Both the position numbers and the translations under genes were made by a program. DNA of 48,938 nt from an uncultured Enterobacteriaceae bacterium (GTDB lineage Bacteria; Desulfobacterota; Binatia; Bin18), in contig CAZXFE010000003.1 in NCBI GenBank assembly GCA_964639795.1, forward strand, positions 1 to 48,938. Direction: 5' to 3'. The notes under the pieces were generated by a model. That model did no database searches. It saw nothing but the letters and a program-made list of their open reading frames with translations, and was not told the DNA's origin. Below, piece after piece: positions 35,764 through 44,852 of this stretch (the first letter of the stretch is position 1; every line of letters starts with the position of its first letter).

Positions 35764-37065
35764 CTAGCTCAGAGTCCGCATCCCAATATAAATCGCGGTG
35801 AAGACAACTAAAAAGACGATGCCGGCATAGCCGAGCAGCTTCAGCCAACGCGGTGGATGCGCTTCGCGCGGCATATGCGAGCTGAAGACAAGACGGTGAT
35901 TCGCAATCGCAATGATCGGTGCCACCAGGAACGAGATAACCGTAGCCAGATCAACTAGCGCTGTAAAATTCGTCAGGAACTGAGTAATAATCAGGTAGCC
36001 ACCAATCGCACCAATAATAATCCACGCGTTATAGACCGTCCGCCTGTTCTGGCCGTTGGAAAACAATAGCGCCCAGGTACGGTCCATAGCTCTCGCGTAG
36101 CCATCGAAGAGTACGAGGGTCGTGCTAAACATGACTGAAAAGGCCGAAGAGGCAATAATAATATAGCTCCAGTCGCCCAGTGTGGTGGTGTAGAGCCGGA
36201 CGACCTCGTTCGTGAATTGGGTGCCGCTTTGATTGGAGAAGGAGTGGCCTGAGCCGTACATGATGAAGGCACCCAGGGTCATGAAGCACACGGCAAGAAT
36301 CGCAGTCATTACGTAAGAAATATTAAAATCCAGCAGCGTCTCTCGCATGGTGGGCTTGTATCGGGTCTGTTTGATGCGCTCGAGCGTCCACAGGCTATTC
36401 AGCGCTGAGAGATCTAGTGGGGCGGGCATCCAGCCCATGAGTGCAATCAGAAAGGCAAAGCCAGATATCGACCAGATTTCAGATGAGTAAAATGTGAGGG
36501 GAGCGATAGGGCCACGCAAGAGTGTCAGAACAAAAGCAGCGATGGTCGAGATAAACAGAACAGTGCAAATGACTTTGATTAGGCTGTCCAGGATACTATA
36601 CTTGCCAACCAGCAAAATACCGACACACACAACAGAGAGGAAGAGCGATGTAATGCTGGCGGGAATAGTCAGCGCGAGCAGATTGTTCAGCAGGCCCGCT
36701 GTGGTAAAGCTGACCGCCGCGATGATGATGAACATCGGGGTGACGGTGATGAACAGATATAAATACAGTGCCCATCTGCCGAATCGCCGATAGCCGTCAA
36801 TCAGGCTTTCCCCGGTGGCGTTGGCATAACGTGAGCCATATTCGAACGACGGGTATTTTAAGAGATTGGCAATCAGAATCGCCCACAGCAGCGCGTAGCC
36901 GTAAGTCGCGCCAGCCCGCGTCGACTGGACCAAATGCGAGACGCCGATAGCCGTGCTGGCAAAGAGCAAACCTGGACCGAGTGTTAGGAGAAAGCGAGCG
37001 AATTGGCCGTCGTTTTCTCGCGTTGCCGTTCTCTCTCTAGTAGAAGTCGCTTGTGTGTTTTCCAT
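35764..37065 (-). CDS. NRAMP-superfamily transporter, non-canonical metal-site motifs
   Basis: About 11 hydrophobic helices with NRAMP-like layout (GPGLLFASTAIG..., ...LMGWMPAP...). The TM1 DPGN motif is replaced by GVSH. I prefer the ATG at 37065. Confidence 0.7.
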   Translation of the reverse strand: MENTQATSTRERTATRENDGQFARFLLTLGPGLLFASTAIGVSHLVQSTRAGATYGYALLWAILIANLLKYPSFEYGSRYANATGESLIDGYRRFGRWALYLYLFITVTPMFIIIAAVSFTTAGLLNNLLALTIPASITSLFLSVVCVGILLVGKYSILDSLIKVICTVLFISTIAAFVLTLLRGPIAPLTFYSSEIWSISGFAFLIALMGWMPAPLDLSALNSLWTLERIKQTRYKPTMRETLLDFNISYVMTAILAVCFMTLGAFIMYGSGHSFSNQSGTQFTNEVVRLYTTTLGDWSYIIIASSAFSVMFSTTLVLFDGYARAMDRTWALLFSNGQNRRTVYNAWIIIGAIGGYLIITQFLTNFTALVDLATVISFLVAPIIAIANHRLVFSSHMPREAHPPRWLKLLGYAGIVFLVVFTAIYIGMRTLS

Positions 37066-37196
37066 AGAAAGCCTGATATAAAAATTCCTTGAGTTTTGGT
37101 TGCAGCAGAGAAACACGACTCTTTCTTGCCTGTCAAGGAAACGGGGAATATGAGTTGGCTCGCTTACTTAGCACGAGAGAGCAAAGAAAGCTGTTA

Positions 37197-38555
37197 ATGA
37201 TAGATCTGGCTGAAATCCTCCAGACCATCCCTGATTACCAAGAGTTCCTAACCCTAAAAGAACTGCATAATAGTTCCGTCGAGCTCGTCGCAGAGTTTCC
37301 AGAGGTCGCGCGACTCCAAAAGATAGGCGTGTCTACGGATGGACGTCCGATCGAACTGCTGACCATCGGACACGGCTCGCGTGCGGCCCTTTTTCTCGGG
37401 GTTCCGCATCCCAATGAACCCATTGGTACTCTCAGCTTGGAGTTCCTGAGCCGTGTGTTATGTGAGCGGCCCGATCTCAGAGAGCGGCTTGATTATACCT
37501 TTTTGATCGTCAAAGTGAGTGACCCGGATGGACTGGCGCTCAACGAAGGCTGGCTCAAAGGCACATTTTCTCCGCTTCAATATGCCCTTAACTATTATCG
37601 GTGTATGGCCCAAGAACAGGTGGAGTGGGGCTTTCCCATTGACTACAAGACACTGCACTTCTCCAACCCGCCGGCTGAAACACAGATCGTCATGCAGCTT
37701 ATGCAGAACTACCGTCCCGGCTTCTGCTACTCGCTGCATAATGCCAGCTTTTGTGGGGTGTATTTCTATGCCTCTCAGTGTTTTTCTCGACTCTTCACTC
37801 AGCTCCAGCAGCTTGTTGCCGACCAAGGCTTAGCGCTTCACCAAGGTGAACCAGAGGTGCCGTATATTCAAGCCTGGACTCAGGCTGTGTATCCGTTCTT
37901 CGGAGTGCAAGAAAGCTACGATTTTATGGCCCAGCATCTGGATCAAGATCCGGCGGCACTCATCGCGACCGGGACGAGTTCAGCCGACTATCTCATACAA
38001 CTAGTTCCAGAGGCATTGTCGCTTGTGTGTGAATTGCCCTATTTTACCGACCCTGCGCTGGAAAATACGAGACCGGCAGGCATCTCGCGTCGTGACGCCA
38101 TGGCTGAAGGGATGAATCGTATTGAAGAAACACTAGCGCTCATTGAGCGACATTTCTTTGCTCTCCGGTCCTTGGCTCTCAAGGATAGACTTCCTTCCTC
38201 GCGTCTCTTCCGATCTGTGTCCGATTATGTGCAACGAACGCCTAAGCGCCTGGTTGCGCAACGCAGACAGCTGGAAACATCGTCTGCCTATGAGGAAGAA
38301 GCGACTCATGCCCAGGCATTTGATGCCACAGTATGCCGCAGTTTGCATCCCACACTGTATCTGGGTGAAGTGTATCGTTTAGCGAAAGAGGCTGGGGAAG
38401 AGAGTAGGGCGGAGGAAATCCGTACACAGGTAGAGCTACGGATCAGACACCTAGAGGGCGAGAGTCATATTGAAGTCTTACCTCTCAAGAAGCTGGTTGC
38501 GGTTCAGGTGGGCAGTGGGCTGCTGGCCATGCTGACGGAAGCGTCGTGTGCATGA
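37197..38555 (+). CDS. M14-like zinc carboxypeptidase family protein (no signal peptide)
   Basis: ATG at 37197. The propeptide-less N-terminus reads GVSTDGRPIELLTIG, and the Zn ligand motifs are GVPHPNEPIG (HxxE) with a later YSLHNA. Confidence 0.65.
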   Translation: MIDLAEILQTIPDYQEFLTLKELHNSSVELVAEFPEVARLQKIGVSTDGRPIELLTIGHGSRAALFLGVPHPNEPIGTLSLEFLSRVLCERPDLRERLDYTFLIVKVSDPDGLALNEGWLKGTFSPLQYALNYYRCMAQEQVEWGFPIDYKTLHFSNPPAETQIVMQLMQNYRPGFCYSLHNASFCGVYFYASQCFSRLFTQLQQLVADQGLALHQGEPEVPYIQAWTQAVYPFFGVQESYDFMAQHLDQDPAALIATGTSSADYLIQLVPEALSLVCELPYFTDPALENTRPAGISRRDAMAEGMNRIEETLALIERHFFALRSLALKDRLPSSRLFRSVSDYVQRTPKRLVAQRRQLETSSAYEEEATHAQAFDATVCRSLHPTLYLGEVYRLAKEAGEESRAEEIRTQVELRIRHLEGESHIEVLPLKKLVAVQVGSGLLAMLTEASCA

Positions 38556-38745: not shown

Positions 38746-39876
38746 ATGGAAGCCGGGAATAACCAATATACGACTGGTATCCAGCAGGTGGAGGAAAGAC
38801 TGCTGGACTTTCTACGTACGATCGAAACACATCAGGAAAAGATGTTTGTTGCCCGGCTTGCCGAGCAGAACTCACAGTTGCAGGAGGATGTGGGTGAGTT
38901 GTTCGAGGGGCTGAAAACGGATCTTTCCGCGCTTGCTCCAACCGGAAGATTGCAAGACTTCCACGAAAAATTTACCAAAGCGATTGAGCATTGCGCCGAC
39001 TCCTATCGGTTCTTTTTGCTTTTCACCGGGCAAGAATCCGGCATGAATTTCTTGAAAGCTCGGCACGAACTCTGTCGAGGCAAACATCTCTTATACGAGT
39101 TGCGGGCTGAGCTTCCGACCCTGCAGGAATATTGGGTCCTGCCTGACGCTCTGCCTTCTCTTGTCGCTTTAGAAACGCAGATTCCAGGGCTGGAGGTCCC
39201 TGTGGGGATGATCCGCAAAGAGGGTGAAGACCAGCGATCAGCCTACTCGCTATACGTCCCCGAGAATTACACGCCGCAAAAACAGTGGCCTCTGATTGTC
39301 TGCCTGCACGGTGGATACAGCCGAGACGATGATTATATTTTGACCTGGATACGGGCGGCAAAAAGCAAGGGATATATGGTACTCTCGCCCAAATCGATGA
39401 GGGAAACGTGGTCGGCCATCCGCTTACCTGGTATTGCGCCTAATCCCGCGCTGGATCGTCGCTCTATACGGATGATGTTGGAGGAGGTCTGGGGGACTTA
39501 TGCGGTGGACCGTAGTCGGGTCTATCTAACGGGCTTCTCAGACGGAGGGATTTTTACTTACGTTTTAGGACTGGCCTATGCGGATCTGTTTGCGGGGATA
39601 GCGCCGGTGTCCGGCCGCATCCATCCGGCTGCTGATCACTTCGTCAGACGTGGTCAAGGCAAAGACTTGCCGATCTTAATCGTGCACGGTGGGCAGGATC
39701 CCATCTTTCCTATCGAGGTGACACGGCAGGTCAGAGACGTATTCGTAAAATTCGGCTACGACGTGACCTATCAGGAGTTGCGAGACTGGGGACACGCCTA
39801 TCCCTACTCCATCAATGAGACCATTGTGTTGCCCTGGTTTGATGGGCTTGGGGCAAAGTCCAAGTCGCCAGCTTAA
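38746..39876 (+). CDS. alpha/beta-hydrolase (carboxylesterase/PHB-depolymerase-like) with an uncharacterised ~170-aa N-terminal domain
   Basis: ATG follows AAGGGGGAAG. It has the segments LIVCLHGG, the nucleophile elbow GFSDGG, LIVHGGQDP and WGHAYP. I did not recognise the N-terminal helical domain. Confidence 0.7.
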   Translation: MEAGNNQYTTGIQQVEERLLDFLRTIETHQEKMFVARLAEQNSQLQEDVGELFEGLKTDLSALAPTGRLQDFHEKFTKAIEHCADSYRFFLLFTGQESGMNFLKARHELCRGKHLLYELRAELPTLQEYWVLPDALPSLVALETQIPGLEVPVGMIRKEGEDQRSAYSLYVPENYTPQKQWPLIVCLHGGYSRDDDYILTWIRAAKSKGYMVLSPKSMRETWSAIRLPGIAPNPALDRRSIRMMLEEVWGTYAVDRSRVYLTGFSDGGIFTYVLGLAYADLFAGIAPVSGRIHPAADHFVRRGQGKDLPILIVHGGQDPIFPIEVTRQVRDVFVKFGYDVTYQELRDWGHAYPYSINETIVLPWFDGLGAKSKSPA

Positions 39877-39919
39877 TACAGGGACATCCGCACACAGGCG
39901 GCGGCTTGTTCACCCTAAT

Positions 39920-40531
39920 ATGGGCCGGTATCGGTGGGGGATATGGGGAAAAATCCTTGGCCCGATCACGCGGCCATTCTGGTGGCAGTGGGTGTCGATA
40001 TGGTTTATCCCGTACTCGATACTGAGATGGGCCAAAGAGCGTCGAGACTCCGTGCGGAGGCCGCGTGGCTATCTCGTTATCGCCTCGTTCTTAGCCGCCT
40101 AAATCGCGATCTATTCCATCTTCGAGTCGATTCATGAACTACAGCTGAGTCGGGCCTTCTTTGAACGCAACGTATTTATGACGATGGTGTCCTCGGGCAA
40201 GAGCGGGTCATTCATAGCCACTATGTAGACGTTTGGGCCGTTCCAGAACCGAGCAGTCTCGTTCAAACCCGTTTTTCTCGCCCCATGGAGTTGGTTTGGA
40301 TCAGGCACGCCGAACAAAGATCTGCTGGCATTGTGGGCGCGGAACTACTTGGAGACCTGTACCACTGAGACGTGCGGGATAGAAGACAGAGACAACCCCG
40401 TCAATTCTGCCCGTATTGATTTGCGCCAGGCCAACCTGAGCGAGGCCAGACTGGCGGAAAAGCAAGTGAAAGAACTCGGGACGTACGAAGGCGGGAAGCT
40501 ACCGGACAACCTGAAGCATTTGGAGCACTAA
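39920..40531 (+). pseudogene. possible decayed pentapeptide-repeat protein gene (two in-frame stops)
   Basis: A single reading frame carries three coding-like segments, interrupted by TAA (40100-40102) and TAG (40226-40228). The C-terminus reads RIDLRQANLSEARLAEKQVKELGTYEGGKLPDNLKH, which is typical of pentapeptide-repeat protein tails. There is no Shine-Dalgarno sequence at 39920. Confidence 0.3.
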
Positions 40532-40640
40532 TTCGTGGAGCATGGTCGTTTGGTATTGGTGAGGGGGAGGCGGGGACGGAATATTGGGATGTCGTTGAAG
40601 GACGAGCGGACGTTTTTGCGCGCAAAGTTGATGACCTGTT

Positions 40641-41219
40641 CTAGCCCGCCCAACGAGAGAAGATATTAAACAGTCGCTGGCCGATAATGCCGATAATCGG
40701 CGGAAACAAAATGCTCGGCAGGAACCGGGCGGCTGTAAACGGCCAGCCCAGAAACGGAATTTCCCAGATCAATAACCGCGTTGGAGAAAGCAGGGTTTTG
40801 GCCGTAATAAAGGCCAGCAAGGGTCCCACGGCAACGCCTTGTTTGATCAACGAAGCGGCTATTGGGAATACGACATACGGTCCGCCCGGCATCACAAGTC
40901 CGATGAGCCAGCCAAGCAAGATCCCCTTTGTGCCGGACTGTTCGCCCATCCATTTAACCAAGACTTCACGCGGAAGCAGAACGTTGAAAAATCCGGCGAA
41001 ACAGAATCCGAGCAGTAATGGTAGCCAGACCTGTTGCAGTAGGCCAAAACCAGACTGAAGACCTTTGAGGGGCAGGTCGGGGCTTTTGATAAAGGCAATG
41101 GTGGCCAGCGCTAAAGTGAGGCCGCCTAGGATGAGAATGCCGGCATTCATGCGCTTCTTTCCTTTTTCTTGGTCTTTTCCGGGCGAGCCGCCGGCCATCT
41201 GTAGCTGCGCTTCACTCAT
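40641..41219 (-). CDS. small polytopic permease, translationally coupled to pqqE
   Basis: The ATG (41219-41217) overlaps the pqqE TGA (41218-41216). The 192-aa product has about 5 hydrophobic helices. The segment LIGLVMPGGPYVVFPIAASLIKQGVAVGPLLAF resembles one repeat of the 'predicted permease' (ArsP/DUF318-type) family. Confidence 0.75.
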   Translation of the reverse strand: MSEAQLQMAGGSPGKDQEKGKKRMNAGILILGGLTLALATIAFIKSPDLPLKGLQSGFGLLQQVWLPLLLGFCFAGFFNVLLPREVLVKWMGEQSGTKGILLGWLIGLVMPGGPYVVFPIAASLIKQGVAVGPLLAFITAKTLLSPTRLLIWEIPFLGWPFTAARFLPSILFPPIIGIIGQRLFNIFSRWAG

Positions 41220-42352
41220 GAGCGAGTGGTGCGAGTAAATTGAGTAGAGAGGCGCTGGCTAGTGCGCAGATCGCGGTAGACGAGATCGGTGTTTGCCTGC
41301 GGGGCTTCTTTGGCTGCTTTAAGCACGACGTCATGCAAAGGTGAGAGGCCGCACACTGGATCCGTTGCCGCTGCATCTCCCGTCAGCAGAAATGCCTGGC
41401 AACGACAGCCGCCAAAATCGACCGTTCGCCGCTCACAACTGCGGCATGGTTCCTGCATCCAATCCTCGCCACGATAGGCGTTCAGCGCAGGTGAGTCTTG
41501 CCAAATCTCGGTGAGGGATTTGTCTTTCACGCTCTCAAAGGTGAGGTGAGGAATCGCGTGTGCTGCATGACAGGGTAAGACTTCTCCTGTGGGCGTGATG
41601 ACCATATAACTGCGCGCCCAGCCGCCGGAACAGGCTTTGGGCTGATCGCCAAAGTAGTCGATTTTGACAAAGACGATCTCCATGCTGCCTTGGTAGCGTT
41701 TGCGTGCCTCCCGTGCGAACTGTTCCGCCCGGTCATACTGCTCACGCGCCGGCATGAGCGCCGCACGGTTTTTCAAGGCCCAGGCATAGTACTGGGTGTT
41801 GGCCAGCTCCAGTCTTTGTGCGCCAAGCTCGGCGGCTTGCGTAATGATCTCCGGCACTCGGTCAATATTCAGGCGATGCAGATTGATGTTAATCGTCAGC
41901 GGAAAGTCGAGCTTTCGTATCGAATCAGCAATAGCCAGTTTCTTGTCATACGACGGCATGCCGGCAATCGTATTCGCCGTGTTCCGGTCAGTATCTTGGA
42001 TACTCAACTGAATATGTTCGAGCCCGGCAGTCTTAAACTCTTTGAGCTGGGCTTCATCTAACAAGGTCCCGCCAGTAATCAAGTTCGTATACAGATCGCA
42101 CGTATGGGCCTGACGAATCAGGGGCAGAATGTCTTTACGCACCAGCGGCTCGCCGCCTGAAAAGTGGAGCTGAATCACACCGAGATCGGCGGCCTCGGTG
42201 AAAGTCTGACACCACTGCTCCGTACTAAGTTCATCCAGCATGGTATGGAATTCAATCGGGTTCGAACAATAGACGCACTTCAGCGGACAGCGGTAGGAGA
42301 GTTCGGCAACAACGGTATAGGGACGCGGCGGTCTCATCCGATGAGGTCTCAT
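41216..42352 (-). CDS. pqqE: PQQ biosynthesis radical-SAM protein PqqE
   Basis: The sequence VVAELSYRCPLKCVYCSNP contains C-x3-C-x2-C. A Cys-rich SPASM region lies at the C-terminus (CHAAH...CRSCERRTVDFGGCRCQ). The gene follows pqqD. Confidence 0.93.
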   Translation of the reverse strand: MRPHRMRPPRPYTVVAELSYRCPLKCVYCSNPIEFHTMLDELSTEQWCQTFTEAADLGVIQLHFSGGEPLVRKDILPLIRQAHTCDLYTNLITGGTLLDEAQLKEFKTAGLEHIQLSIQDTDRNTANTIAGMPSYDKKLAIADSIRKLDFPLTININLHRLNIDRVPEIITQAAELGAQRLELANTQYYAWALKNRAALMPAREQYDRAEQFAREARKRYQGSMEIVFVKIDYFGDQPKACSGGWARSYMVITPTGEVLPCHAAHAIPHLTFESVKDKSLTEIWQDSPALNAYRGEDWMQEPCRSCERRTVDFGGCRCQAFLLTGDAAATDPVCGLSPLHDVVLKAAKEAPQANTDLVYRDLRTSQRLSTQFTRTTRS

Positions 42353-42353
42353 T

Positions 42354-42668
42354 TTATGACTCAGACTCGATCTCCAGACCAGTCTCTAACAGACCACGGT
42401 TATGGATACGAGTGAGCAATTCGACGACATGTTCTACAATTTGCTCGCGCTTTGTCTCAGAGAATTTCTCAAGTAACGTATCAATGATGTCCGTTACGCT
42501 GCGGTCGCCATCACACAGCTTGAGCACTTCTGCTGCCGTTTGATTGAGCACGAGCGCGGCTTCTGGGAAGACCAGCATGTACTGGTTTTCCACCTTGTCC
42601 CAGCGCAAGCGGGCTTTTGAGGCCAATCGAGGTTGCCAAGAGTACAGTCTGTGTGGCCCGTCAGCCAT
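42354..42668 (-). CDS. pqqD: PQQ biosynthesis peptide chaperone PqqD
   Basis: The 104-aa product contains RLASKARLRWDKVENQYMLVFPEAALVLNQTAAEVLKLCDG and lies between pqqC and pqqE. Confidence 0.9.
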   Translation of the reverse strand: MADGPHRLYSWQPRLASKARLRWDKVENQYMLVFPEAALVLNQTAAEVLKLCDGDRSVTDIIDTLLEKFSETKREQIVEHVVELLTRIHNRGLLETGLEIESES

Positions 42669-42704: not shown

Positions 42705-43457
42705 CTATCCCTCCCAGAAGGGCGGTTTGAAGCCGGGACTGACATGGGCATAGTACACCGCGTCAAGCAGACTCCACAAAATATTACACTTCGTCCTGAG
42801 TGCGGCTATAGCCTGTTCTTGGTGCTCTCGGGTCGGACAGTTTTTAATGACATAATCCAGGCCATACTCAACATCACGTGGAGCTTGCTCGAGCCGGGCG
42901 CGAAAATATTCGAGACCTTGTTTTTCGACCCAGGGATAGTGCTCGTCAAAGGCGGGGAGTCGTCGAGCCATCAGCGCGGGTGCAAAAAGCTCGGTCAGTG
43001 AGGAGGCAATGGCTAACATTAAGGACTGGCTCTGCACAAGAGTGAGATAGGCATCAACCGCAAAGCGTACCCCTGGTAAAACATACCGAAAGCCAGTTAC
43101 ATCTTCACGTGGGAGTCCGGCTGATTCACCCAGCACTAGCCATTTATGAATCCCACCTGGATCGCTGCCACGGCCATCGTGATCAAGAATACGCTGTATC
43201 CATGCGCGCCGGACATCTGGATCGGTGATGCGGGCCATGATGGCCGCATCCTTTCTGGGGATCATAGACTGATAGTAGAAACGATTTTCAACCCAGGCTT
43301 GCAGCTGTCGCCTGCTCAGCTTGCCTGCATGCATCAATACATGAAAAGGGTGTTTGTCATGATACCCCTGTGCGCCTATGGCCCGGAGTCGTTGCGTAAA
43401 CTCCTCGGGGCTTAATACCTGATGTTCTGGATGTTCGGCTCTGTGTATTGTGCTCAC
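42705..43457 (-). CDS. pqqC: pyrroloquinoline-quinone synthase PqqC
   Basis: GTG start. PqqC-typical segments are [32 protein letters not shown] and SLTELFAP. Confidence 0.93.
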
Positions 43458-43460
43458 TGC

Positions 43461-44381
43461 TCACACCTCGAAGTCCATGCCATCGAACGCAACTTCCCAG
43501 CCGGCTTCTCCGACTGCATGACGTTGTGGGGAATCCTCAATGACCAGCGGATTGGTATTATTCAGGTGCGTATATATTTTTCGTACATTGCGGAGGTCGG
43601 CGAGTTTTTCCAAACTGCCGTCGGACCCACTGATCGGGACATGGCCCATCGAAAATGATGTCTTTTGAGCCAGTCCAACAACAATCATTTCCTCGTCAGT
43701 CCAGCACGTGCCATCGATGAAGAATACATCGCAGTCGCTGAGTCGAGCTTTGACCGTCTCATCCACCTGGCGTACTCCGGGCAGGTACACGAGTGAGCGT
43801 CCACTCTGTGCGTCAGTGAATCTATAGCCTAAGGACGCCTCGTTCCAATCGTCAACTTGACCCAGGAGATAGGCCGGCGCGCGGCCCGGCACAGTAAACG
43901 CTTGGTACCGTATACCGCTGGGTTTGTCATCAACGCCGATCAGGTCGTGCTGGCCGGACAGTGCGACCGTCTTCCAGGTGCAGCGGGGCGGACCACAAAC
44001 GGTTTGAAAGATCGAATTGCTTTCCATGATCCAGCCGTGAACCTGCTGAGTTGAGTACAGATATAGCGGCTGGGATTCTCTGAGGGTCAACAGCCCGGCG
44101 ATGTGATCTACTTCGGCATTGGTCAGCAGGACCGCCTGAATAGGCGTATGGCGTGGAACGTCTCGTGGAGCCAGACCGTCAAACGCTCCGATTTGTTGGC
44201 GAATGTCCGGGCCGGCATTGATGAGGTACCAGCGATCGTTATCGGCACTGATAGCGATTGCCGACTGAGCGCGCGGGCTGGCGTTGAGAGTCCCAGCACG
44301 CAGCCCGCGACAATGATTGCAGTTGCAGTTCCACTGGGGAAAGCCTCCCCCAGCTCCTGAGCCTAGTACGCGAACTCGCAC
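43461..44381 (-). CDS. pqqB: PQQ biosynthesis protein PqqB (MBL fold)
   Basis: The GTG start follows GAGGGG. The product begins RVRVLGSGAGGGFPQWNCNCNHC and contains the MBL-like segment LLTNAEVDHIAGL. Confidence 0.92.
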   Translation of the reverse strand: MRVRVLGSGAGGGFPQWNCNCNHCRGLRAGTLNASPRAQSAIAISADNDRWYLINAGPDIRQQIGAFDGLAPRDVPRHTPIQAVLLTNAEVDHIAGLLTLRESQPLYLYSTQQVHGWIMESNSIFQTVCGPPRCTWKTVALSGQHDLIGVDDKPSGIRYQAFTVPGRAPAYLLGQVDDWNEASLGYRFTDAQSGRSLVYLPGVRQVDETVKARLSDCDVFFIDGTCWTDEEMIVVGLAQKTSFSMGHVPISGSDGSLEKLADLRNVRKIYTHLNNTNPLVIEDSPQRHAVGEAGWEVAFDGMDFEV

Positions 44382-44416
44382 CCTATCGCCCCTCTTCCAA
44401 AAAACTCGGACGGTTG

Positions 44417-44457
44417 AAAAAAAAACGGGCTTCTCCCTGAAGATGGGGAAGCCCGTT
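44417..44457 (-). terminator. intrinsic terminator/attenuator hairpin between pqqA and pqqB
   Basis: The minus strand reads AACGGGCTTC-(14-nt loop with an internal CCC/GGG pairing)-GAAGCCCGTT and runs into a 9-T run whose first two T are the last two stem bases. It begins 23 nt after the pqqA stop. Confidence 0.75.
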
Positions 44458-44480
44458 CAAAGCAATCCTGTATAAAGAAA

Positions 44481-44558
44481 TTACTCGGAAACGAGAATAT
44501 ACATGCTGACTTCGGCGTCCATTCTCACTTCGGTAAATTCGGGTTTTTCCCACGTCAT
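44481..44558 (-). CDS. pqqA: PQQ precursor peptide PqqA (25 aa)
   Basis: This gene is not in the ORF track. On the minus strand, AAAAAGGAGGTAACTCATC is followed by ATG and the frame translates to MTWEKPEFTEVRMDAEVSMYILVSE. It carries the E-x-x-x-Y crosslink motif (EVSMY) and lies directly upstream of pqqB. Confidence 0.88.
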   Translation of the reverse strand: MTWEKPEFTEVRMDAEVSMYILVSE

Positions 44559-44852
44559 GATGAGTTACCTCCTTTTTGCTTCACGTACTTTACCCTACCA
44601 TAATACCCTTGTCTAGGTGCAAGTGGCCCAAAAAAGAAAGGTCGGCCGGCGCGGTACTGTTTTGTTGGTTCATAGTAAGCAGAGATTTGACTTTTTTGCA
44701 AGAAGCTAGGAAAATTTCTCAGCGTGAATTTGAGCGCAGCGCAACCTCCCAACTCAACGCCCAAGGAAGAGATTCTTCGTTTCGCTTCGAATGACAGAAC
44801 CGGGTGCCTATGGTTTATTTGGATAGCCACTAAGAACAGAGAGCAAAAGATA

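Follow-up and report, generated by a model that had tools for sequence, protein, structure and literature searches.

A half-size ArsP_1-family permease joined to pqqE and its possible role in the export of pyrroloquinoline quinone

A small permease gene lies at the end of a pyrroloquinoline quinone (PQQ) biosynthetic cluster in a 48,938-nucleotide stretch of DNA from an uncultured bacterium (contig CAZXFE010000003.1 of assembly GCA_964639795.1; that whole stretch is called the window here). The gene occupies positions 40641..41219 on the minus strand, begins with ATG and encodes a protein of 192 amino acids that is the equivalent of the N-terminal repeat of the ArsP_1/YraQ permeases. Its start codon (41219-41217) overlaps the TGA stop codon of pqqE (41218-41216), and the two genes are thereby joined in an ATGA junction (41216..41219, minus strand); the minus-strand letters across this junction are ctcgctcATGAgtgaa, with tcATGAgtg as the core. 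A sequence-only reading of the window had described a 192-codon open reading frame (ORF) that overlaps pqqE in this way, and had taken it to be the sixth cistron of the pqqABCDE transcript. The overlap is borne out by the minus-strand sequence, and comparison between genomes gives good support to its place as the sixth cistron, since the overlap and the linkage to pqq genes are both conserved across lineages (see below).

The cluster begins with pqqA (44481..44558, minus strand), which encodes a precursor peptide of 25 amino acids, MTWEKPEFTEVRMDAEVSMYILVSE, with the E-x3-Y motif and with a GGAGG Shine-Dalgarno sequence upstream. It is followed on the same strand by pqqB (43461..44381; 374 bits to TIGR02108, cut-off 245), pqqC (42705..43457; 338 bits to TIGR02111, cut-off 240), pqqD (42354..42668; 75 bits to TIGR03859, cut-off 46) and pqqE (41216..42352; 512 bits to TIGR02109, cut-off 381), the last of which encodes a radical SAM/SPASM protein. 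These identities come from NCBIfam equivalog models, with all four proteins scoring above the cut-off. The five pqq genes and the permease gene are all co-directional, and pqqB, C, D and E are spaced only 1-36 nt apart. A sequence scan for terminator-like sites found none between pqqE and the permease gene and none directly 3' of the latter. Such a site does occur between pqqA and pqqB, where RNA folding predicts a terminator- or attenuator-like stem-loop with a run of nine U residues (44414..44458, minus strand); it has a 14-bp GC-rich stem, and a 91-nt stretch containing it folds at -30.3 kcal/mol (z = -4.0). The stem-loop is read through in a metatranscriptome contig from a relative (43816-44627), and its appearance is that of an attenuator, by which pqqA transcript would be in surplus over that of pqqB-E and the permease gene. 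Ahead of pqqA, inspection of the window by eye revealed no sigma-54 promoter. Portions of pqqA-B, pqqC/D, pqqE and the permease gene are represented in metatranscriptome contigs of low coverage, which come from relatives with 95-99% identity.

The permease ORF is clearly not a chance occurrence. A word-indexed search returned 212 homologs, an exhaustive search returned 113 representative clusters (50% identity) at E<=1e-30, and the ratio of nonsynonymous to synonymous substitution rates (dN/dS) among relatives is 0.03-0.2. An alternative internal start codon is present at Met24 (41148..41150, minus strand), with a weak AGGA-like Shine-Dalgarno sequence upstream, and this is the start that gene callers picked in the closest relatives, yielding proteins of 169-171 amino acids. 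We nevertheless favour the long, 192-residue form, judging from a KGKK-type basic cluster ahead of Met24 that is conserved in frame in most homologs and from the overlap with the pqqE stop codon that is kept across lineages.

Evidence on the role of the permease comes from its genomic surroundings in other organisms. In a forward survey, 80 permease loci from a one-genome-per-species scan were searched with the Pqq proteins of the window. Forty-two of these loci encode a permease at least 45% identical to that of the window, and 40 are informative once the two that come without upstream DNA are set aside. The pqqB-C-D-E genes lie directly upstream, on the same strand, in 35 of the 40. The sequence-only reading had let its proposal stand or fall with the association of such homologs with pqq genes in other genomes, and that association is what the survey found. 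The linked loci carry the submitters' labels Binatia, Methylomirabilota, Rokuibacteriota, Nitrospira, Kofleriaceae/Polyangiaceae (Myxococcota) and "Deltaproteobacteria", a few of them obviously wrong, and the linkage spans at least four phylum-level lineages. The flanking genes differ between these lineages, and the linkage is therefore not a matter of plain synteny.

The form of the junction is also conserved. A 4-nt overlap of the pqqE stop and the permease start (ATGA, GTGA or TTGA) is found in 21 loci in addition to the window, from Binatia, Rokubacteria, Nitrospira and Myxococcota. One locus has an overlap of 1 nt, two have no spacer at all and two have a 12-nt spacer; four Methylomirabilis loci have spacers of 56-62 nt, and a fifth has one of about 160 nt. 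Pairwise distances between the permeases of 40 loci correlate closely with those between the PqqE proteins (r = 0.94), which argues that the permease gene and pqqE have been inherited together. A sister subfamily, represented by 38 loci at 35-44% identity, has adjacent pqq genes in none of them. An attempt to read a function from the neighbours of this unlinked subfamily gave a mixture (RNase J-like beta-CASP, MscS, TldD/PmbA and M1 peptidase genes) with no theme.

A reverse survey started from an alignment of PqqE and covered 80 metagenome pqqE loci, mostly with 49-57% identity to the PqqE of the window. The half-size permease gene comes right after pqqE in 7 of the 80, and in one more it lies divergently upstream of the cluster. 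Judged by these distributions, the permease is a lineage-restricted solution. The literature that was searched yielded no paper linking PQQ with UPF0718, YraQ, PF03773 or DUF318. The fold family is known, and we found no paper or curated model that describes either the half-size ArsP_1 branch or its conserved joining to the pqq operon.

The protein itself had been described from the sequence as a single repeat unit of an ArsP-like predicted permease, at half the usual length and with about five very hydrophobic helices, and both parts of this description have held up. Pfam model PF03773 (ArsP_1) is matched with an E value of 2.1e-13 and 50.5 bits (gathering cut-off 32.3) over profile positions 14-134 of 294, and it is the sole Pfam match of the 192-residue protein even at E<=10. 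When 31 homologs are combined into a profile, it matches residues 66-195 of the 346-residue YraQ protein of E. coli with 97% probability and 32% identity, and its alignment with the C-terminal half of YraQ is collinear and not significant (E 0.21). Full-length ArsP_1 proteins contain both profile halves in about 290-350 amino acids, an architecture that the 192-residue protein does not have; the half-size family has a median length of 170 amino acids among its best 149 sequences. Public annotations of the homologs say only "permease", "YraQ (UPF0718)" or "hypothetical". The NCBIfam equivalogs fall far below their cut-offs, with 39 bits against 325 for SaoE (NF040736) and 32.4 against 300 for SO_0444 Cu/Zn efflux (NF033936). 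The protein is thus assigned to ArsP_1 through the N-terminal half of that profile; it has no characterised equivalog and stays below the cut-off of every characterised transporter model.

Five hydrophobic segments are recovered by a Kyte-Doolittle scan, and they are present as helices in an AlphaFold2 (AF2) model with a mean predicted local distance difference test score (pLDDT) of 77. The model has helices at residues 26-45, 49-81, 84-92, 97-109, 114-126, 131-144, 146-157 and 159-191. Two long helices (26-45 and 49-81) are followed by a short one (84-92), then by two broken ones (97-109/114-126 and 131-144/146-157) and by a long final helix (159-191). The PGGPY motif, residues 111-115 (codons 40875..40889, minus strand), forms the break between helices 97-109 and 114-126 in the model. 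Its residues P111, G112, G113 and P114 are invariant in 91 of 91 sequences, and the complete PGGPY is invariant in all 31 sequences of one alignment (A1). At the aligned first helix break YraQ has PGMMCTCC where the permease has PGGPYVVFP. The pqq-linked clade and the unlinked subfamily differ at a small number of conserved positions, most strikingly at Lys141 (codon 40797..40799, minus strand), which emerged from the subfamily alignment as a signature of the pqq-linked clade within a hydrophobic helix. Position 141 is Lys in all 42 pqq-linked sequences and in all nine sequences from Methylomirabilis loci that have no pqq genes (discussed below), and it is Trp in 97% of the unlinked subfamily. 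The conserved charges embedded in the membrane are the basic residues K141, R148 and R165 and a single acidic residue, E153.

How could half of a transporter function? No second ArsP_1-like ORF occurs in the 49-kb window, and no partner half adjoins the permease relatives in the neighbourhoods that were examined. A 172-amino-acid ORF that is conserved upstream in Aminicenantes-type loci was considered as the partner and shown not to be a permease half. Two natural tandem fusions were found in the representative library: P0175 (318 amino acids), whose two units give strong domain hits (30-179 and 197-318) and are separated by one helix, and P0243 (234 amino acids), with two strong domain hits. 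The canonical full-length ArsP_1 family shares this two-unit layout. By the Rosetta-stone argument, such fusions imply that two units form one transporter, and therefore that the 192-residue protein is likely to be a homodimer. On this comparison of sequences, the permease would most likely work as a homodimer, with its subunits either parallel or antiparallel. A single-sequence AF2 model of P0175, made as a proxy for the dimer, had a pLDDT of 51, too low to use.

The position directly behind pqqE is occupied by transporters of other kinds, most of them of the efflux type, in some of the 80 loci of the reverse survey. A DrrA-like ATPase of the ATP-binding cassette (ABC) type and an ABC-2 permease follow pqqE directly on the same strand in six loci, an MntP-like six-helix protein follows in four and a DHA2-type efflux protein of the major facilitator superfamily follows in one. 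Several of these unrelated transporter genes overlap the pqqE stop codon by the same 4 nt. The ABC genes score 212 bits to TIGR03864, the model of the Ped-type ATPase, which is below the cut-off, and they score better to DrrA-type exporters. Such a distribution may reflect non-orthologous displacement at a transporter position. In two metagenome loci a beta-propeller gene resembling TIGR03866 lies downstream of the half-size permease gene, which ties the permease to the Ped-type gene set. Several "unknown" ORFs that follow pqqE in high-GC metagenome loci have no family hits and look spurious.

PQQ works in the periplasm and is also released as a public good. The sequence-only reading had noted that its route to the periplasm has not been established, an assessment that the literature still supports in that it offers hypotheses only (PMC12124388, PMC7391723). 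PQQ is made in the cytoplasm and moved to the periplasm, and a recent account names no transporter for this step and cites only a candidate screen in Gluconobacter (PMC12124388). An essential ABC exporter of M. extorquens, META1p2359, has merely been proposed as a PQQ exporter (PMC7391723). Very probably, the permease is a membrane transporter whose function is linked to the PQQ/quinoprotein system. What it carries is a more tentative matter. We lean, at somewhat less than even confidence, toward a homodimeric secondary transporter, encoded by the last cistron of pqqABCDE, that would carry PQQ, or an anionic intermediate late in its synthesis, out of the cytoplasm into the periplasm. The export model is the most economical one because it draws together the operon position and translational coupling, the efflux-type transporters found at the same position, the efflux precedent in the family (ArsP is an efflux permease; PMC6205960) and the basic residues in the core, one of them specific to the clade. 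A broader form of the proposal is that the half-ArsP_1 protein is the first dedicated inner-membrane PQQ exporter and that the site behind pqqE is a general "exporter slot" filled by unrelated transporters; this is a distinct possibility, short of being probable.

The simplest way to picture the mechanism begins with translation. Ribosomes that end on pqqE would re-initiate on the permease gene, and synthesis of the permease would in this way be tied to that of PqqE. The protein probably starts with a basic N-terminal tail in the cytoplasm, followed by two ordinary transmembrane helices. Its core would consist of two broken helices, the first interrupted at PGGPY and the second around S145-P146, near the invariant R148 and E153. 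This core corresponds to the N-terminal repeat of full-length ArsP_1/YraQ proteins, and self-pairing should therefore be needed for a complete translocation pathway. A putative substrate site would lie where the helix breaks meet, with Lys141, Arg148 and Arg165 as possible ligands for the PQQ carboxylates. The driving force might be the membrane potential or the proton-motive force, a suggestion that follows from the lack of an ATPase partner. The direction of export is, speculatively, taken by analogy with characterised family members; the NCBIfam models nearest to the permease also carry efflux-transporter names.

Several observations weigh against export of PQQ, the first of them from Methylomirabilis. 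In one group of these bacteria (loci L014-L016, L018, L025 and L081-L084), the permease gene lies 16-36 nt behind a gene pair for a sensor kinase and a sigma-54 (NtrC-type) activator, and pqqA-E are cleanly absent, at this locus, between the NtrC gene and the permease gene. Relatives (L020 and L029) have the same kinase and activator genes (72-81% identical), then pqqA-E and then the permease gene. The matching kinase and activator flanks imply that pqqA-E were cleanly lost at the locus with the permease retained or, less likely, that they were gained. The permeases without pqq genes are intact and keep the invariant motifs, and their clade signature, including Lys141, is preserved except for L70F. 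They are under purifying selection as well, with dN/dS of 0.08-0.2 compared to 0.03-0.07 in the pqq-carrying relatives. Furthermore, 'Ca. M. oxyfera' is reported to use PQQ methanol dehydrogenases without being able to synthesize PQQ (PMC6094997). A cell of that kind should have no need of a transporter that exports PQQ of its own making. If the pqq genes are absent elsewhere in these genomes too, the permease must serve some purpose that is independent of self-made PQQ. As a separate observation, pqqE of one of the pqq-carrying relatives (L020, 8574-9671, Methylomirabilota) contains one in-frame stop, which could reflect an assembly error, a pseudogene or recoding.

Other points on the same side concern distribution, expression and structure. 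Only about 10% of the surveyed pqqE loci carry the permease, and roughly two thirds have no transporter behind pqqE. The junction at 41216-41219 is bridged by none of the metatranscriptome contigs, and DNA may be present in the sequencing run from which coverage of the permease gene comes. A sequence-profile search of the PDB gave no relevant match, and a Foldseek comparison of the AF2 model to the PDB gave none at E<=0.001, with a best TM-score of 0.28; no structure solved to date represents the fold. To these can be added the metal precedent, in that the characterised relatives handle metal(loid)s, that the ABC systems at the same position resemble the Ped-type system serving lanthanide uptake and that two neighbours of pqqE in M. 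extorquens, orf6 and orf7, matter for growth only where it depends on lanthanides (PMC7391723). The retention in Methylomirabilis and the metal precedent from both relatives and same-position transporters keep our confidence in export below even.

The most probable of the alternatives is a metal-ion transporter, for lanthanide, calcium or another cation, that serves quinoprotein function and does not carry PQQ. Metal(loid)s are what the only named relatives (ArsP, SaoE and SO_0444 Cu/Zn efflux) work on, the MntP-like proteins behind pqqE are annotated as manganese efflux pumps, and PedA1A2BC of P. putida, the system that the TIGR03864 score of the same-position ABC genes brings to mind, mediates lanthanide uptake (PMC6839425). 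The orf6 and orf7 result fits this idea as well. An Nramp-family metal transporter gene (35764-37116, minus strand) lies near the cluster in the window and is syntenic with it in several Binatia genomes. A metal substrate would also account for the permease that Methylomirabilis lineages keep after losing pqq at the locus; 'Ca. M. oxyfera', reported to make no PQQ, has a methanol dehydrogenase of the XoxF type (PMC6094997). The conserved residues tell a different story. The permease has PGGPYVVFP where YraQ has PGMMCTCC, and thus lacks the thiol motif of relatives that handle metal(loid)s, and membrane charges that are basic at K141, R148 and R165 and acidic only at E153 would hardly suit a trivalent cation. 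When translation is coupled closely to that of a biosynthetic enzyme, export of the product is the more typical function, and the ABC hits, being under the TIGR03864 cut-off and better matched to DrrA-type exporters, lend less to the metal precedent than their Ped-type resemblance suggests. A metal substrate is thus the best account of the Methylomirabilis retention and the worst fit to the conserved residues, and we regard it as unlikely, if well worth keeping in mind.

The Methylomirabilis loci also suggest transport in the opposite direction, with the permease as an importer or bidirectional facilitator of PQQ (or a PQQ precursor) for salvage or cytoplasmic cofactor sensing. Retention under purifying selection with a signature in which L70F is the only change would fit import after loss of pqqA-E at the locus, and the spacing of 16-36 nt behind the sensor kinase and sigma-54 activator genes looks like co-expression with a sensing system. 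This alternative seems distinctly improbable to us. The known PQQ enzymes are periplasmic, so that PQQ from outside has a single membrane to pass, the outer one, by way of PqqU (PMC12124388). These organisms are not known to use PQQ in the cytoplasm, and the characterised family members are efflux systems. The absence of pqq genes refers, moreover, to the locus.

That the permease is unrelated to PQQ and has simply stayed beside pqqE through synteny is very doubtful. Most pqq clusters work without this permease, which persists without pqq genes at the locus in the one Methylomirabilis group, and the sister subfamily has no pqq link. Against this, the gene stays next to pqqE on the same strand, usually with the 4-nt overlap, in at least four phylum-level lineages with differing flanks, the linked and unlinked clades can be told apart, and even the locus with the permease gene divergently upstream retains the link to the cluster. 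Least probable of all is an exporter of a by-product of PQQ synthesis (trimmed PqqA fragments or a reactive intermediate), or a means of producer protection as in clusters for ribosomally synthesized and post-translationally modified peptides, since, even though PQQ is a product of that type, such clusters often end with an exporter gene and the operon position and coupling to pqqE would suit one, peptide fragments are ordinary amino acids and short peptides that cytoplasmic peptidases can recycle, and retention after pqq loss would be left unexplained.

The remainder of the window is ordinary diderm chromosome, with lptA/B/C, rpoN, kdsA- and kdsB-type genes, pyrG, metK, ahcY and a gene for an H+-pyrophosphatase in addition to the Nramp gene. 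The host has a periplasm, as judged by the LptA, LptB and LptC proteins and the KdsA- and KdsB-type enzymes encoded here. No quinoprotein gene was detected among the window ORFs scanned. Among public contigs, those nearest to the window bear the label Candidatus Binatia and show 96-97% protein identity, and the sequence is present in metagenome runs from hydrothermal vents and seawater. Downstream of the permease gene, the interval 39877-40640 (765 bp) holds short ORFs only and no convincing gene, and it is bordered by a gene for a PHB-depolymerase-like (polyhydroxybutyrate) esterase (38746-39876, plus strand), whose synteny with the pqq-permease cluster extends to several Binatia genomes. The spacer between the esterase and permease genes varies in otherwise syntenic genomes, from about 2 kb through about 0.85 kb to about 0.13 kb in three examples.

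Beyond the esterase gene lies one for an M14 zinc carboxypeptidase of cytoplasmic appearance (37197-38555, plus strand). An M14 gene adjoins the permease gene in many Binatia-type and some other pqq-permease loci (17 besides the window), in convergent orientation wherever the strand was recorded; in the window the two are separated by the esterase gene. The window contains no pqqF/G-type peptidase gene, and the M14 enzyme could be a trimmer of C-terminal residues of cross-linked PqqA.

Export of PQQ, if it proves to be the function of the permease, would give the exporter-slot idea a wider meaning as a genomic handle on the missing cytoplasm-to-periplasm step of PQQ biogenesis. It would also be the first non-metal(loid) function for the large and structurally uncharacterised ArsP_1/UPF0718 family and would define a half-size, presumably homodimeric branch of it. 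A metal substrate such as a lanthanide would instead add a new transporter to what is known of quinoprotein metabolism in uncultured phyla rich in methylotrophs. A permease coupled to PqqE in several phyla is a concrete and easily testable candidate for the inner-membrane PQQ step, and it might find use in PQQ production strains.

Several known systems invite comparison with the permease. The only PQQ transport proteins with experimental support are PqqU, a TonB-dependent outer-membrane importer, and PqqT, a periplasmic PQQ-binding protein (PMC12124388). They share with the permease a part in PQQ trafficking, proposed in its case, but they have unrelated folds, reside in the outer membrane and periplasm and serve uptake; the permease shows no such homology in Pfam at E<=10. 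META1p2359 has been proposed for the same cytoplasm-to-periplasm step (PMC7391723), but it is a fused, ATP-driven ABC exporter encoded outside the pqq operon, and the case for it comes from a growth phenotype whereas that for the permease comes from gene linkage only. The PedA1A2BC system (TIGR03864-03866) is likewise a transporter in genetic association with genes for PQQ and quinoproteins, and related ABC and beta-propeller genes follow pqqE elsewhere; it belongs to a different protein family and functions in lanthanide uptake, not PQQ transport (PMC6839425).

Closer in structure is the ArsP protein of Campylobacter jejuni, an efflux system for methylarsenite and roxarsone(III) and the type member of PF03773, the Pfam family to which the permease belongs. 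Both are secondary inner-membrane permeases without an ATPase, and ArsP works in the efflux direction (PMC6205960). ArsP differs in having about 315 amino acids with both profile halves, where the permease matches only positions 14-134 of 294, and in being encoded in an ars operon rather than a pqq operon. Chen et al. are said to have shown in 2015 that ArsP uses a cysteine motif for trivalent arsenicals, and the permease has PGGPYVVFP in place of that motif. The uncharacterised YraQ (UPF0718) protein has the same arrangement of a helix break followed by a helix rich in small residues, but its 346 amino acids include a second, very divergent repeat, it carries CTCC at the first helix break and it has no link to pqq genes. 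A parallel for the proposed assembly is provided by half-size homodimers of the EmrE/Fluc type, with which the permease shares both the absence of a neighbouring paralogous partner and the existence of two-unit fusions.

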